From: an uncultured Methanomicrobiales archaeon
GTDB lineage: Archaea > Halobacteriota > Methanomicrobia > Methanomicrobiales > Methanospirillaceae
Length of the DNA stretch: 64,000 nucleotides
Assembly (NCBI GenBank): GCA_949320185.1
Contig: CASGHK010000001.1
Span: 16,397 to 80,396, forward strand
Direction: 5' to 3'
Both the position numbers and the translations under genes were made by a program. Below, piece by piece: positions 33,094-36,614 of this stretch (the stretch's first letter is position 1; each line of letters begins with the position of its first letter). The notes under the pieces were generated by a model. It was given only the letters and a program-made list of their open reading frames with translations. It did no database searches and had not been told where the DNA came from.

Positions 33094-35034
33094 ATGACCG
33101 AGAAAGCCAGCATCATCGCCAAGCTGGGGGAACAGGATGTCCTGCTGCCGGCCCTGGTCCAGCAGGCCCTGGTGGCGAACGACCAGGTAAAGTACTACTT
33201 CTCTCTCCTGCAGACCGCCCGGCAGCGGGCTGAGCACCCGGGCCAGACACCTTCCACACTCAGGGCCGAGCGTGAGGCCTCGGGGATCGAGGAGCCTATC
33301 CTCGACGGGGTTGTTGTTGGTGCGGTCCGGACGGGAGAGGGGACCTACGCAGTCCCACATCTCTCCCGTATCCTTGAGGGGGTCCGGGTCTCTCTCGAAG
33401 CCATGATCCGACCGTTCCGTATCACCGGGGAGCAGGGTCTCGACTTCGAGGACCGACTGAGGGGTTTTCCCTGCCTGGAGGTGGGGCACGTCCAGGACGA
33501 GATCACCGCCGAAGAGGTGAGCGCGATCACCTCGGGGGACAGGGCTCTCGGGGACAGCCCACATCTCCTGGTCATGGACCTTCACCGAGCCCTGAACGAC
33601 CTTCTGGCCGAGCTCTCGAACGAGACGGTCGAGGGGGCGCAGACCTATCTCCTGACCGATGATGATCGTGACCTGGTCGCAGCCTTCATGTCGGGCCTCC
33701 ATCGCACCGCCCACGTGAAGTTCGGACACCCGGGCCTCGGGACGACCGCAACCCGCGTCGGAGGACGGCTCGTGATCCAGAACGACATTGGCCTGACCGA
33801 CGCCCATGTGATGGTGATCGGGGTCGAGGGGGAGACCGTCACCATCACCTATACCGACGTCCACATGGCCCGGCTCTCGTTCTTCCAGTCTCTCTTCGAG
33901 CCATTCGAGGTTGAGTGGAGCGATACGCTCACCCGGAAGAGCGAAGGGGGCGCCGTGCGGGGTGTCTACCACCTTGCCGTCGGCACATTCCGGGCTGAGG
34001 GGAGAGCGACCTGCCGGGACTTTCTTGCACACCTCGGATCCCGTGTCGTCTTTCTGATAGACTGGAACCGGGCCAGGAAACAGCTCCGCAACTTCGTATT
34101 GAATAAGGACGCCATCCTGGTCCTTCGCTGGGCAGCGTTCGAGGAGGTTGGCCACCGGGGTTTTCTCGAGCTCGGGGGGGAACGGCTGGTCTATTCCGCA
34201 CTTGACTTTGGGGTTCGGATACCGCTCCGGTACGGGGAGCCCCTGCACCGGATCCTCGGTCGCGAGAAGACCCTGGAATACCTCAGGTGGGTGCTCCGGA
34301 CCACCTCCGAGGGACTTGCCCGGGGACTGCCGCGGATGCTGATCCAGGACGAGTGTCGTGCAGAGCTCAGCAGATATTTCCGCTCCGCTCCAGCGGAGCT
34401 GCTTGAGATCTCCCTCGCACACGCCACCCTCCTCTTCGACGTGGCAGAGGCCCTCGAGGTGTCACTGACGGCGCGGCGATCGGGCACCGGCACCGATCGG
34501 ATCGCCCGCAACGCCGTCCGGGCGAAGCAGTGGGAGAGCGAGGCGGACCACCTCGTCTCGGAGGTCCGCACCCTCTCCCGGCGGGTCGAGGAGGTTGACT
34601 ACTTCGTCCCCCTGGTAACGGCCCAAGACGACGCCCTCGATTTCCTCGAGGAGGGTTGTTTCTACTCGACCCTGATCCCGGACACGGATTACTCTGTCGA
34701 GGTCCTGCGGGGACTCGAGGAGATGATTGCGCTCGCGGTGGCGTCCACCCGCGAGTTCATACGGTCCGTGACTGCCGCCCAGTATGCCCACACCGGCTCA
34801 TCGCGCGACGAGGTGCAGGACTTCCTCGCGGCGAAGAACCGGGTGATCGCACTCGAGCAGGAGTGCGACGACGCCTGGCGACGGCTGGAGAGGACGCTCA
34901 TCGTGGAACGGCCCGACAGCAGCTCGCTCCGGGTGTATGCCGAGCTCTCCAGAATGATCGAGGAGTCGACCAACTCGCTGATGAAGGCGGTCTACGTCCT
35001 CCAAGACAACATGTTCGTCGAGATGAGGCGATAA
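33094..35034 (+). CDS. Uncharacterised 646-aa protein with C-terminal DUF47/PhoU-like helical repeat domain
   Basis: ATG preceded by GGAGGG (the tracked ORF starts at an upstream GTG). I recognise no motif in the first ~470 aa. The last ~170 aa have two DUF47-like repeats (KQWESEADHLVSEVRTL...; ALEQECDDAWRRLERTL...ELSRMIEESTNSLMKA). Confidence 0.75.
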   Translation: MTEKASIIAKLGEQDVLLPALVQQALVANDQVKYYFSLLQTARQRAEHPGQTPSTLRAEREASGIEEPILDGVVVGAVRTGEGTYAVPHLSRILEGVRVSLEAMIRPFRITGEQGLDFEDRLRGFPCLEVGHVQDEITAEEVSAITSGDRALGDSPHLLVMDLHRALNDLLAELSNETVEGAQTYLLTDDDRDLVAAFMSGLHRTAHVKFGHPGLGTTATRVGGRLVIQNDIGLTDAHVMVIGVEGETVTITYTDVHMARLSFFQSLFEPFEVEWSDTLTRKSEGGAVRGVYHLAVGTFRAEGRATCRDFLAHLGSRVVFLIDWNRARKQLRNFVLNKDAILVLRWAAFEEVGHRGFLELGGERLVYSALDFGVRIPLRYGEPLHRILGREKTLEYLRWVLRTTSEGLARGLPRMLIQDECRAELSRYFRSAPAELLEISLAHATLLFDVAEALEVSLTARRSGTGTDRIARNAVRAKQWESEADHLVSEVRTLSRRVEEVDYFVPLVTAQDDALDFLEEGCFYSTLIPDTDYSVEVLRGLEEMIALAVASTREFIRSVTAAQYAHTGSSRDEVQDFLAAKNRVIALEQECDDAWRRLERTLIVERPDSSSLRVYAELSRMIEESTNSLMKAVYVLQDNMFVEMRR

Positions 35035-36614
35035 TGGAACGGTCTGTCTTCTTTGGTCCGAACCGGGTCTACGGCGATGTCCCGGTCTCACGCTTCGGCA
35101 ACAAGGCGGCGGTGCTGGCCCGGATGGCCGAATCAGGTGTCCCGGTGCCGCCGGGCTTCGCACTATCGGTTCAGGTCTGCGAGGAGTACTTCGCCGCTGA
35201 CCACGTCCTTCCGCCCGACACCGAGTCCCTCCTCCGACAGGGGATGACCCAGCTGGAGGAGGCGACGGGTCTCTCCTTTGGGTCGGTGCGCCGCCCCCTT
35301 CTCGTCTCGGTACGGTCCGGTGCCGCCATCTCGATGCCGGGCATCATGGAGACGGTCCTGAATGTCGGGCTCAATCGCGATACGGTCGGCGGGCTGGTCT
35401 ACCGGACAGGGAATCCGCGGTTCGCCTGGGACTCGTACCGGCGGTTCCTTGCCCAGTTCGGCGAGGTTGTTCGGGGTATCGCGCCCTCCCGGTTCCGGGA
35501 TATCCTGCACGAGGTGATGGAGCAGGAGGGCGTCCCAGACGAGAGCGAGCTCGGCACGGCGGGGGTTCGAGAGGCCGCCAACCGGTTCGAACGAATCTAC
35601 TGGGAGACGGGAACCGCCTTCCCAACCGACACCCTGGATCAGCTCGTTGCCTGTACGAAGGCTGTCATCGCCTCGTGGGAGAGCCCCCGTGCCGATGCGT
35701 TCCGGAGGCTCGGGCTGGCAGGCGGGGCCACCGGAACGGCCGTCGTGGTTCAGGCGATGGTCTTCGGCAACCTCGGAGCGGCCTCGGGCGCCCGTGTCGC
35801 GTTCACCCGCAACCCCTGGAACGGAGCCCGCGAACTCACTCTGGACTTCCGGTTCGGGGCGCAGGGGGAAGAGGTCGTCTCGGGGGACCGCTCCGGCCAT
35901 GATCAGGCGACCTTCGCCCGGGTGATGCCTGAGCAATTTGCTGCCCTGCGCACTATCGGACAGGTTCTCGAACGGGAGTTCGCCGACATGCTCGACCTCG
36001 AATTCACGATCGAGGAAGGGCGGCTCTTCCTCCTGCAGTGCCGCGCTGGAAAGAGAACGCCGCTCGCCGCTCTGCAGGTGGCCGTCGACTTTGTTCGCGA
36101 GGGACTGATCGACGAACAGGAGGGGGCACGGCGCCTCGCCGGGATAGACGTGGACGGGATTCGCATCAGGAGGGTCGGAGGAGATCGGCCCCCACTGGCG
36201 AGTGGGACGCCGGCATCGGGCGGCGTTGCTGTCGGAACGTGCGCATTCTCAGCGGAACGGGCCGAACAGGACGCTGTTGACGGCCCCGTCGTCCTGGTTC
36301 GACCAACAGCGTCCCCCGACGATATCGGAGGGATAGATGCTGCTGCCGGCCTGCTCGTCGCGCGCGGGGGACGGACCTCCCACGCGGCGGTGGTTGCCCG
36401 GCAGCTCGGGGTCGTCTGCGTCGTAAACTGCCAGTCCCTCGTCGTCGATCCTGTCCGTCACCGGTGCTCCTTCGGTTCCGTTCTCGTTCGAGAGGGGGAG
36501 ACGATCTCGATCGACGGAGACGTTGGGAATGTGTACCTTGGCGCAGTGGACGTCGTCGAAGAAACGCCGCAGGAACTCATCGCGACGTTCCGGGACTGGC
36601 CGACAGGGGGATGA
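35034..36614 (+). CDS. PPDK-like protein: ATP-grasp nucleotide-binding plus phosphohistidine swivel domains only, with no PEP/pyruvate TIM-barrel domain
   Basis: ATG overlaps the upstream TAA (TAATG). [145 protein letters not shown]. The ORF then ends at 526 aa. Confidence 0.85.
   Translation: [526 protein letters not shown]

Follow-up and report, generated by a model that had tools for sequence, protein, structure and literature searches.

A truncated dikinase-like protein and its PhoU-tailed partner: a conserved gene pair probably belonging to phosphate or polyphosphate metabolism

The A-B locus

Two adjoining genes on the forward strand of the window (the whole 64-kb stretch of DNA that was analysed) are considered here: gene A (33094..35034), which encodes a 646-residue partner protein with an uncharacterised N-terminal domain and a PhoU_div-like C-terminal domain, and gene B (35034..36614), which encodes a 526-residue protein related to pyruvate phosphate dikinase (PPDK). 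The ATG of gene A lies 6 nt downstream of a Shine-Dalgarno-like GGAGGG (33082..33087, forward strand) and is preferred over the start of a longer GTG-initiated ORF from 33049, which was rejected as homologues begin with MTEK. The genes meet in a TAATG (35032..35036), where the TAA of A (35032-35034) shares one base with the ATG of B (35034-35036), and a GAGG inside the end of gene A (35025-35028) stands 5 nt upstream of the start of B. Products of the same 646 and 526 residues are found in independent gene calls from public metagenomes. An earlier note, made from this DNA alone, had given the same ORF positions and overlap, and the peptide blocks that it quoted are all present in the translations. 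Upstream of A, ORFs encode UPF0047, UPF0147 and a zinc-ribbon protein. The gene following B is, as that note had described, a convergent membrane protein gene, a hydrophobic 332-residue ORF on the minus strand (36626..37624) with no Pfam match.

Gene B encodes a truncated PPDK

Protein B is composed of an ATP-grasp nucleotide-binding domain and a swivelling phosphohistidine domain, for which Pfam reports PPDK_N (PF01326; 2e-34) and PEP-utilizers (PF00391; 8e-20) only; PEP-utilizers_C was not found by Pfam, in line with the earlier claim that B has no PEP/pyruvate domain. TIGR01828 aligns with B at profile positions 18-522 of 865, scoring 499 bits against an equivalog cut-off of 843, and B shares ~45% identity with PPDK structures in the PDB over PPDK residues 5-529. 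The short-PPDK model NF004531 gives 389.6 bits, below its 456-bit cut-off, whilst the weak NCBIfam matches to PEP synthase, PigC/RedH and rifamycin phosphotransferase come via shared domains. B is much closer to PPDK than to the water dikinases.

In common with PPDK (EC 2.7.9.1; TIGR01828; PDB 1kbl, 5jvn), B has the ATP-grasp nucleotide-binding and swivelling phosphohistidine domains, in which the Lys, Arg, Glu, Gln and Thr-Ser-His residues needed for catalysis are retained; K24, R94, E323, Q335, R337, T448 and H450, the last two within T448-S-H450, are invariant in 55 orthologues. In contrast to PPDK, it is devoid of the PEP/pyruvate TIM barrel and has A as an obligate companion, either as a separate protein or in the same chain. 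His450 (codon 36381..36383, forward strand), the predicted phospho-carrier, aligns with the PPDK catalytic His and is located in a 12-residue block, GGRTSH450AAVVAR (36366-36401). The protein ends 76 residues past this histidine rather than the previously estimated 60 or so.

The truncated length is common to 65 B orthologues from archaea and bacteria (median 538 residues), and the 64-kb window contains no second PPDK-like segment. A frameshifted ppdK is excluded because these 65 orthologues end at the same point with invariant catalytic residues, and also because the conserved convergent membrane gene fills the downstream space.

Among characterised proteins, the closest to B is Rv1127c (VadK) of Mycobacterium tuberculosis. 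This truncated PPDK, the only one characterised, has the same two-domain architecture and no pyruvate domain; work published in 2026 identified it as a histidine autokinase, and it is described as regulatory (PMC13400623). Its His422, the equivalent of His450 in B, is autophosphorylated with ATP and Mg (PMC13400623), so truncated two-domain PPDK proteins can be active. VadK differs from B in that it is reported from Actinobacteria only, adjoins methylcitrate-cycle genes and interacts with the encoded enzymes (PMC13400623). No A-like partner is described for it, whereas B homologues of the A-B family come with a partner of their own and with phosphate or polyphosphate (polyP) neighbours.

Gene A encodes a new domain with a PhoU-like tail

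No family in Pfam or NCBIfam matches protein A, and Pfam, NCBIfam, PDB profile and Foldseek searches liken it to no characterised family beyond its PhoU_div-like tail. Its AF2 model has a mean pLDDT of 87.6 and divides into two domains. The N-terminal domain (residues 1-413; 33094..34332, forward strand; pLDDT 83, pTM 0.73) is predicted to be mixed alpha/antiparallel-beta and is without a relative in Pfam, NCBIfam or the PDB, whether judged by sequence or by fold, the best Foldseek match in the PDB having an E value of 0.047 and a TM below 0.2 and a profile search of the PDB returning nothing. The earlier note had likewise been unable to place this part of A, although it is ~413 and not 470 residues long, with the PhoU-like domain beginning at ~414. 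A TIM-barrel fold for A was considered and rejected on the predicted structure and fold search.

The N-terminal domain is represented by 1268 clusters at 50% identity, and ~60 of its residues, including seven His, many Asp/Glu and many Arg/Lys, are invariant across archaea and bacteria. The invariant polar cluster comprises D154, H157, H164, H212-P-G-L-G, Q229-N-D-I-G-x-T-x-A-H238, D255-x-H257, D323-W-N-x-x-R-K329 and G353-H354. In the predicted model, His212 is carried by a flexible loop, residues 212-214 of which have a pLDDT below 50.

The C-terminal domain (residues 414-646; 34333..35031, forward strand) is predicted to adopt the six-helix PhoU/DUF47 (PhoU_div) fold, matching 3l39, 2iiu, 1t72 and others in Foldseek with a probability of 1.0 and target TM values up to 0.82. 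Pfam PhoU_div does not match the A protein of this window at E <= 0.1, and the DUF47 assignment, already suspected in the earlier note, stands instead on the fold and on PF01865 matches in the C-termini of 13 of 22 orthologues. Three acidic motifs are invariant here (E481-D485, D512/D513-D516-E519 and E588-D592-R596). The last 230 residues of A thus resemble PhoU and PitR (PhoU_div, DUF47, PF01865) in their six-helix fold and conserved E/DxxxD-type motifs. PhoU and PhoU_div domains are known from regulators only, and PhoU, PitR and NptA's PhoU domain are accessory regulators, each of which has an importer as its partner (PMC13170248). The known members are ~210-residue stand-alone proteins or NptA tails (PMC13170248), whereas in A the domain forms the tail of a 646-residue protein with a large new domain, whose partner is a dikinase-type kinase.

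A and B are inherited as one unit

Homologues of A number at least 1921, and at least 568 species genomes contain a relative; methanogens, ammonia-oxidising archaea, Accumulibacter and Thiobacillus are among these hosts. The two genes occur together in hundreds of archaea and bacteria. Among 80 species loci, B lies directly downstream of A wherever room exists, except in L027, a genome in which A is kept but B does not adjoin it. No genes other than these two are conserved throughout the loci, and no conserved third partner lies nearby. The tight junction also recurs: in 51 of 59 orthologous loci, a candidate B start falls between -8 and +15 nt from the stop codon of A. The pairwise identities of A track those of B (r = 0.95), with equal means (0.49 and 0.50, respectively). 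Single-chain A-B fusions of 1200-1213 residues occur in two separate 50%-identity clusters and in several independent samples; they include an NCBI-annotated Solirubrobacteraceae protein, and further fused forms are also found.

These fusions and the co-variation indicate that A is no unrelated passenger. Comparison of genomes shows A and B to be one unit in inheritance and translation and, in some lineages, also in a single fused chain, and the two proteins very probably act together. The natural fusions also lend support to the earlier suggestion of a split phosphotransferase with one module supplied in trans.

The pair is repeatedly linked to phosphate and polyphosphate genes

CHAD-A fusions of 994-1002 residues occur in four clusters, one of them directly followed by B. 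CHAD is a specific polyP-binding module, presumed to bring substrate to the polyP enzymes with which it is fused (PMC6537752). The gene order is ppk1-CHAD-phosphoesterase-A-B in Methanoperedens (L047) and ppk1-CHAD/HD-ppx-A-B in Methanolinea (L031), and ppx-A-B is found in Thiobacillus (L078/L079 and L084, the latter with ppk1 nearby). Genes for phosphate uptake stand beside the pair elsewhere, pstS or pstCAB-phoU in Methanosarcina, Accumulibacter and Thaumarchaeota and pit-pitR in L081. Phosphate or polyP genes lie within 6 kb of the pair at 17 of the 80 loci, as a raw count, and the remaining 63 have no phosphate gene nearby. No recurrent neighbour among the loci examined points to an organic pathway, polyP and phosphate uptake being the only recurrent themes.

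By fusion and neighbourhood, the A-B unit is repeatedly linked, in many lineages far apart from one another, to polyP and phosphate-uptake genes, which sharpens the tie to phosphate status proposed in the earlier note towards polyP. It counts against this connection that such neighbours are present at only about a fifth of the loci and that no phosphate gene adjoins the pair in the window itself; a two-domain PPK2 pointed out previously is indeed present (5981..7426) but, at a distance of 26 kb, is no evidence for the connection. On balance, the function of A-B is likely to concern phosphate or polyphosphate. The literature searched holds no description of the pair, and phosphate or polyphosphate metabolism probably has in it a component that had escaped description.

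Proposed mechanism and alternatives

In proteins built on the dikinase cassette, the ATP-grasp domain works with a mobile phosphohistidine domain to hand ATP's beta-phosphate on to a distinct acceptor module. To our knowledge, all characterised users of this cassette except VadK are enzymes. Phenylphosphate synthase, rifampicin phosphotransferase, glucan-water dikinase and PEP synthase follow the same delivery logic as that proposed for A-B, but their acceptor modules are unrelated to A and they have neither a PhoU-like domain nor a polyP-linked gene context. The modules of phenylphosphate synthase reside on separate polypeptides, with the ATP-grasp domain on one subunit and the His domain on another, whereas both are present in B. 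That the acceptor can be polymeric is shown by glucan-water dikinase, whose substrate is a polymer.

The best reading of these data is that A and B would be two halves of one dikinase-type phosphotransfer machine in phosphate/polyP metabolism, either acting on phosphate/polyP or sensing it. From PPDK homology and VadK biochemistry, MgATP would be bound by the ATP-grasp domain of B and its beta-phosphoryl group taken by His450, the gamma-phosphate most likely passing to Pi to give PPi, as in PPDK. The phosphohistidine domain may then swivel not to a TIM barrel but to a putative pocket in the N-terminal domain of A, rich in invariant His, Asp, Arg and Lys, where the phosphoryl group could be donated to a phosphate-type acceptor. 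The PhoU_div domain might gate this transfer according to phosphate status and, in some lineages, the N-terminal CHAD domain might tether A to polyphosphate.

The pair may be an enzyme or a regulator, and its biochemical mechanism is inferred. That A is a catalytic acceptor module, not a pure sensor or target, is proposed tentatively, at somewhat less than even weight; it is a guess because the N-terminal domain is unlike any phosphotransferase, phosphatase or polyP kinase known. The preferred guess for the acceptor, made with low confidence, is a polyP chain end, in a reversible reaction, ATP + Pi + polyP(n) <-> AMP + PPi + polyP(n+1). The genes ppk1, ppk2, ppx and CHAD adjoin the pair, CHAD is fused to A and PPK1 itself uses a phosphohistidine intermediate. 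However, neither A nor B resembles any PPK family (PPK1, PPK2 or archaeal PPK3) in sequence or fold, a dikinase reaction that forms AMP would be novel for polyP, and, with ppk1 and ppx often beside the pair, the need for yet another polyP kinase is not obvious.

That coverage of polyP chemistry also favours a regulatory phosphorelay or sensor, a serious contender, if a less favoured one, in which B would be a VadK-like or EI-Ntr-like histidine autokinase, reporting the levels of ATP, AMP, Pi and PPi through its state of phosphorylation, and A its sensor or phospho-acceptor. The PhoU_div domain would read phosphate or polyP status, the N-terminal domain would serve as output or docking module, and contacts between proteins would let the pair tune ppk, ppx, pst or pit activity without carrying out a net metabolic reaction itself. 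The regulatory roles of VadK and of the PhoU-type proteins fit such a scheme, as do the pst and pit transporter genes that adjoin the pair alongside ppk and ppx, and the loop-borne His212 could accept the phosphoryl group. Nevertheless, the very dense invariant polar residues of the N-terminal domain, and an A that evolves as slowly as the enzyme B, are more typical of an active site, and seven invariant His exceed the need of a single acceptor site. Fusion to CHAD is a typical trait of enzymes that metabolise polyP (PMC6537752), and the pair has neither a DNA-binding or other recognisable output domain nor a conserved third partner encoded nearby.

An improbable alternative is a metabolic dikinase with a non-phosphate acceptor, modelled on phenylphosphate synthase, rifampicin phosphotransferase or glucan-water dikinase, in which a small organic compound or a different polymer would be the ligand of A's N-terminal domain and the phosphate neighbours would reflect Pho-regulon co-regulation only. 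The cassette is reused with many acceptor modules, a fold with no known match leaves any ligand possible, and the 63 loci with no phosphate gene nearby can be read in this way. Opposed to this are the neighbourhoods, whose only recurrent themes across archaea and bacteria are polyP and phosphate uptake, the CHAD fusion and PhoU_div domain, which both indicate inorganic phosphate species, and hosts as diverse as methanogens, ammonia oxidisers, sulfur oxidisers and Accumulibacter, which have no obvious organic substrate in common.

A last reading takes B for an ordinary PPDK or one in decay, whether a pseudogene with a frameshift or truncation or a true PPDK with its barrel supplied by another protein, and A for an unrelated co-transcribed PhoU-like protein. 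It is very improbable and already contradicted by the comparative data: genuine PPDKs are the closest sequences to B and some pipelines label its relatives 'pyruvate,orthophosphate dikinase', but the truncation point is constant, the catalytic residues are invariant, the DNA downstream encodes another conserved protein, A is no TIM barrel, and the fusions and co-variation tie A to B.

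Organization of the A–B pair

Genes A and B together form a widespread and previously undescribed dikinase-type module, encoded by two genes and sometimes by one, which is tied to phosphate and polyphosphate (polyP) metabolism and combines a known catalytic cassette with a new partner domain; a full-text search of the literature returned no paper describing the pair. Gene A (33094..35034, forward strand) encodes a protein of 646 aa, its start being fixed by an ATG codon, a GGAGGG sequence 6 nt upstream and homologues that begin MTEK. Gene B (35034..36614, forward strand; 526 aa) shares one base with it, the stop codon of A and the start codon of B overlapping as TAATG. 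This arrangement had been described in an earlier note on this DNA, and all of the peptide blocks quoted there are found in the translations of the two genes. An identical protein A is present in public metagenome assemblies, where independent gene calls again give 646 and 526 aa. In the window the pair is isolated, with a divergent UPF0047 gene on one side and a membrane-protein gene on the other. The latter (36626..37624, reverse strand), already recognized as a convergent gene in the earlier note, encodes a strongly hydrophobic protein of 332 aa with no Pfam family; its stop codon lies 11 nt from that of B, and it is itself conserved, following B in related Methanoregulaceae and Methanospirillum loci (L001, L004 and L008 of the orthologous loci from other genomes).

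Protein B, a truncated dikinase

The only Pfam families found in protein B are PPDK_N (PF01326, the ATP-grasp domain; E 2e-34) and PEP-utilizers (PF00391, the swivelling phospho-His domain; E 8e-20), with no Pfam match to the PEP/pyruvate TIM barrel (PF02896), which bears out its initial description as a pyruvate, phosphate dikinase (PPDK)-like protein lacking the PEP/pyruvate domain. The Thr-Ser-His motif of the PPDK phospho-His domain is present as GGRTSH450AAVVAR (36366-36401, forward strand), the codon of His450, the predicted phospho-carrier, lying at 36381-36383 by translation. Among PDB structures, plant and clostridial PPDKs match B over its full length (PPDK residues 5-529, ~45% identity), and B terminates in the linker ahead of the PEP/pyruvate barrel. 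In common with PPDK, it possesses an ATP-grasp domain with the catalytic residues and a phospho-His domain; unlike PPDK, it lacks the C-terminal barrel and falls below the cut-off of the PPDK equivalog model TIGR01828 (499 versus 843 bits, with profile positions 18-522 of 865 covered). Residues K24, R94, E323, Q335 and R337 align with those of PPDK and, together with T448 and H450, are invariant in 55 orthologues. The protein ends 76 aa past His450, and its orthologues end at the same point; the early end after the catalytic His had been seen correctly, but the distance had been put at ~60 aa.

Because this endpoint is conserved and the catalytic residues are invariant, the truncation of B is, as judged from the orthologous sequences, an evolved and maintained state and not a frameshift. 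A frameshifted ppdK is ruled out by the conserved truncation, by the conserved membrane-protein gene downstream and by the lack of a second PPDK-like segment in the 64-kb window. Protein A as a TIM barrel supplied in trans is also ruled out, since models of A consist of helices and antiparallel hairpins and no PEP-utilizers_C signal is present. Both the pseudogene and the 'barrel in trans' readings of B are contradicted.

The nearest characterised protein to B is VadK (Rv1127c) of M. tuberculosis, a truncated PPDK that is autophosphorylated on His422 with ATP and Mg and by which the methylcitrate cycle is tuned; reports of it come from Actinobacteria only and describe no A-like partner (PMC13400623). 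The two proteins have in common a two-domain architecture, composed of ATP-grasp and His domains, and the absence of a pyruvate domain. They differ in that B scores under the curated equivalog cut-off of NF004531, the short PPDK model of Rv1127c type (389.6 versus 456 bits), its score being higher on the full PPDK model. Furthermore, B has an obligate partner in A and no prp genes are among the recurrent neighbours of the pair, in contrast to the methylcitrate-cycle association of VadK. From its conserved residues, B may be expected to undergo the ATP- and Mg-dependent autophosphorylation of the catalytic His that was shown for His422 of VadK. Some pipelines label relatives of B 'pyruvate,orthophosphate dikinase', a misnaming that can introduce a false PPDK reaction when the metabolism of methanogens, ammonia oxidisers and Accumulibacter is modelled, and for which M. 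tuberculosis Rv1127c provides a precedent.

Protein A, a new domain joined to a PhoU-like fold

Protein A as a whole could be assigned to no characterised family: neither Pfam nor NCBIfam returned one, and sequence and profile searches of the PDB gave no relative. In an AlphaFold2 model built from 52 homologues (mean pLDDT 87.6), residues ~414-645 are predicted to form six long helices arranged in two three-helix bundles, as in PhoU/DUF47 structures, and Foldseek matched this C-domain to 3l39, 2iiu, 2olt and 1t72 with a probability of 1.0 and target TM of 0.7-0.82. The PhoU_div model (PF01865) matches 13 of 22 orthologous C-termini (best 6e-11), several relatives scoring above the gathering score of 24.4 bits, and gives no match to the window's own A at E <= 0.1. 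The DUF47/PhoU-like tail assigned in the earlier note is thus upheld by the fold and by these 13 orthologues, but not by a PF01865 match in the window's own protein. The C-domain harbours invariant acidic motifs (E481-D485, D512/D513-D516-E519 and E588-D592). Although this fold is common to the PhoU_div/DUF47 proteins, including PitR and YkaA, those are stand-alone proteins of ~210 aa that accompany a Pit-type importer, whereas A has 646 aa, carries an extra domain of 413 aa and is paired with B. A survey of PhoU_div proteins took in single-domain members only (PMC13170248), and A-type proteins therefore fell outside its scope.

The N-domain (residues 1-413) is without a Pfam family or a solved relative. 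Modelled alone (pLDDT 83, pTM 0.73), it mixes helices with antiparallel hairpins, and comparison with PDB folds found nothing, the best hit having an E of 0.047 and a TM < 0.2. Descent as a diverged copy of the protein's own PhoU-like domain is ruled out (hhalign probability 0.1). Some 60 residues of the N-domain are invariant from methanogens to Betaproteobacteria; among them are seven histidines together with numerous Asp, Arg and Lys residues, and the invariant motifs include HPGLGTTATR, QNDIGxTDAH, YTDxH and LIDWNRARK. No homology to PPK1 (PF02503, PF13090 and others) or PPK2 (PF03976) was detected in A or B with Pfam and NCBIfam. PADLOC models also matched neither protein, and on this ground the pair was rejected as an anti-phage defence system.

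Distribution, linkage and fusion of A and B

Protein A represents a large and ancient family. Scanning species-representative genomes with a profile gave relatives in at least 568 species, and searching the whole library with an N-domain profile retrieved 1268 representative clusters (50% identity), nearly all of ~645 aa. Archaeal hosts comprise Methanomicrobiales, Methanosarcinales (including Methanoperedens), Methanomassiliicoccales and Thaumarchaeota, and bacterial hosts comprise many Betaproteobacteria (Accumulibacter, Thiobacillus), Gammaproteobacteria and Acidobacteria, to which further searches added Actinobacteria, Planctomycetes, Alphaproteobacteria and Geobacteraceae. The pair is present in the cultured strains Methanolobus sp. 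ZRKC2 and Methanoculleus frigidifontis.

Across the best 80 loci, a B orthologue lies directly 3' of A wherever the contig continues, with the exception of L027, and no other genes are conserved; the check for conserved co-occurrence proposed in the earlier note thus came out in favour of the pair. Of 59 loci, 51 have a candidate B start between -8 and +15 nt from the stop of A, and the pairwise identities of A and of B rise and fall together across 47 loci (r = 0.95; means 0.49 and 0.50). In the exceptional locus, from an uncultured Methanospirillum, an intact A (6001-7944) is followed directly by the membrane-protein gene and gyrA; it is the sole A without an adjacent B among loci with room downstream, and B may be located elsewhere in that genome or may have been lost.

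The two proteins also occur as one chain. Proteins of 1200 and 1205 aa contain the N-domain, PhoU_div, PPDK_N and PEP-utilizers in that order, which is the gene order of A then B. The fusion clusters each contain between three and five full-length copies, drawn independently from JGI, ENA, Logan and NCBI; one fusion is annotated in a Solirubrobacteraceae MAG, and additional fused forms were found. Such same-order fusions strongly indicate that A and B work as a single molecule. A 1094-aa 'fusion' in L072 was set aside: A and B are in different frames there, and the apparent single chain is an artefact produced by a long open frame in GC-rich DNA. In L081 (8001-11592), a 974-aa ORF joins A to the ATP-grasp domain, and the phospho-His domain is called as a separate, overlapping ORF of 236 aa; either sequencing has introduced a frameshift into a 1200-aa fusion, or the natural split point differs here.

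Phosphate and polyphosphate context

At least one phosphate or polyP gene is found within 6 kb of the pair in 17 of the 80 loci. Genes of these kinds generally account for far less than 1% of a genome, so that the figure would be a large excess, and the association recurs in unrelated lineages with different genes. PolyP genes occur in the order ppk1-CHAD-(metallophosphoesterase/Ppx-III)-A-B in Methanoperedens (L047) and ppk1-CHAD/HD-ppx-A-B in Methanolinea (L031); ppk1 and CHAD lie upstream of the pair in L035, ppx and CHAD-HD downstream in Methanoculleus (L021), ppx just upstream in Thiobacillus (L078, L079) and in L084, where ppk1 is 4 kb away, and PPK2 near the pair in L057. Phosphate genes are represented by pstS upstream of the pair in Methanosarcina, Methanomassiliicoccales and Accumulibacter, by pstCAB-phoU nearby in L070 (Thaumarchaeota) and L018 (Methanomicrobiales), by pstC/pstA only in L032 (Methanomicrobiales) and by a genuine pit (PHO4) and pitR (PhoU_div) pair 1 kb upstream on the fusion-bearing contig L081.

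In addition, four independent clusters (90% identity), of which one is annotated in Planctomycetaceae, have a CHAD domain (residues 27-253) fused ahead of A, and in L090 a gene for a 1002-aa CHAD-A protein is followed directly by B. CHAD is a characterised and specific polyP-binding module, located on polyP granules and in polyP operons; its proposed role is to bring substrate to the polyP enzymes with which it is fused (PMC6537752). These fusions and gene neighbourhoods support the tie to phosphate status raised as a possibility in the earlier note and sharpen it towards polyP. Taken together, comparisons of gene order and domain architecture show both the unit character of A–B and its phosphate/polyP association. 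The control of polyP in archaea is poorly understood, and this family is embedded in phosphate and polyP loci.

Several architectures beside the pair are themselves unusual. These polyP-related architectures (L047 4265-5779; L015 3561-5396; L031 2536-4236; L084 14329-16995) comprise one metallophosphoesterase fused to Ppx-GppA domain III/HD, CHAD domains fused to Ppx-GppA domain III/HD, and one PPK1 fused to a histidine-phosphatase (His_Phos_1) domain. In the thaumarchaeal MAG locus L070 (524-3891), pstC-pstA-pstB-phoU lies 2 kb upstream of A–B, with a PhaC-like alpha/beta hydrolase and a small membrane protein between phoU and the pair and a universal stress protein-like gene downstream. In the library protein P0268 (700 aa, JGI), the first ~270 residues of an A-type N-domain are joined to a phosphate-selective porin O/P domain (PF07396); this is probably a chimeric call or assembly, and places one more A gene beside a phosphate gene. 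The description of the crenarchaeal PPK3 is recent, and in Nitrosopumilus maritimus polyP is produced without known polyP genes (PMC11082331). A–B as the missing polyP genes of N. maritimus SCM1 is unsupported, the thaumarchaeal members coming from a few MAG clusters and from no cultured Nitrosopumilus.

Possible functions of the A–B module

The split dikinase-type module with a partner in trans, as first proposed, is supported and sharpened by the fusions, the linkage and the polyP context. By homology, B would form His450~P from the beta-phosphate of ATP; since it resembles PPDK much more than it does the water dikinases, Pi would probably take the gamma-phosphate. The phospho-His domain could then swivel to the A N-domain, whose invariant basic and His/Asp pocket would replace the pyruvate barrel. 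We prefer a catalytic reading, in which polyP, or Pi/PPi, would be the acceptor and the PhoU_div domain would act as a gate; the active-site-like conservation of A and the CHAD fusions point in this direction, and polymer- and small-molecule-directed dikinases offer a precedent. Stated in full, and then only as a tentative and rather doubtful proposal, A–B may be a new class of polyP enzyme, a 'polyphosphate, phosphate dikinase', in which a PPDK-derived phospho-His would shuttle phosphoryl between ATP (or AMP + PPi) and the polyP chain end, the chain being held by a previously unseen catalytic fold, with gating by the PhoU-like sensor and, in some lineages, a CHAD tether to granules. If true, this would give methanogens, ammonia-oxidising archaea and Accumulibacter, which removes phosphorus from wastewater, a direct coupling of polyP to the AMP/PPi pool.

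The strongest competing reading is a regulatory phosphorelay of the VadK or PhoU/PitR type; it is nearly as likely as catalysis, since PhoU-type domains are to our knowledge known so far only from regulators and ppk1/ppx are often already next door to the pair. A non-phosphate acceptor is possible, but gains no support from gene context. Phosphate biology would be genuinely enlarged by either outcome, a new phosphotransfer enzyme linked to polyP or a PhoU-type regulator of a fourth kind, coupled to a kinase, and both would be relevant to enhanced biological phosphorus removal.

Genes flanking the pair

The ORF divergent from gene A (32474..33061, reverse strand; 195 aa) has its UPF0047 (YjbQ-like) domain confined to residues 59-130. 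Its true start probably lies well downstream of the listed TTG, which would leave an upstream region of ~200 bp shared with gene A; within this region, a T-rich stretch, CCTTTTTCAA, lies ~35 nt before the gene A ATG. No leader RNA or riboswitch was matched by Rfam in 31600-37800, and a sigma-70 promoter scan, of a type unsuited to archaea, found nothing.

A two-domain PPK2 (5981..7426, forward strand; 481 aa) matches PF03976 at 1e-140 in two stretches and adjoins an opposite-strand CobQ-like amidotransferase ORF. This gene had been offered as context for the pair; at 26 kb from A–B, with unrelated genes between, it is too distant to count and is discounted as evidence for a phosphate link.

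Housekeeping genes flank the pair region at 27733..31712 and 37747..42259 and include convergent gyrA/gyrB-like ORFs; by their shared synteny with related loci, the window is placed in Methanomicrobiales. The ORF at 27733..29469, which from its sequence we take to be a probable glycyl-tRNA synthetase, overlaps the start of a Hef-type helicase/nuclease gene, so called from Pfam on the identical gene in the orthologous locus L087. This housekeeping synteny around the pair is common to the closest Methanoregulaceae and Methanospirillum loci (L001-L004 and L027).
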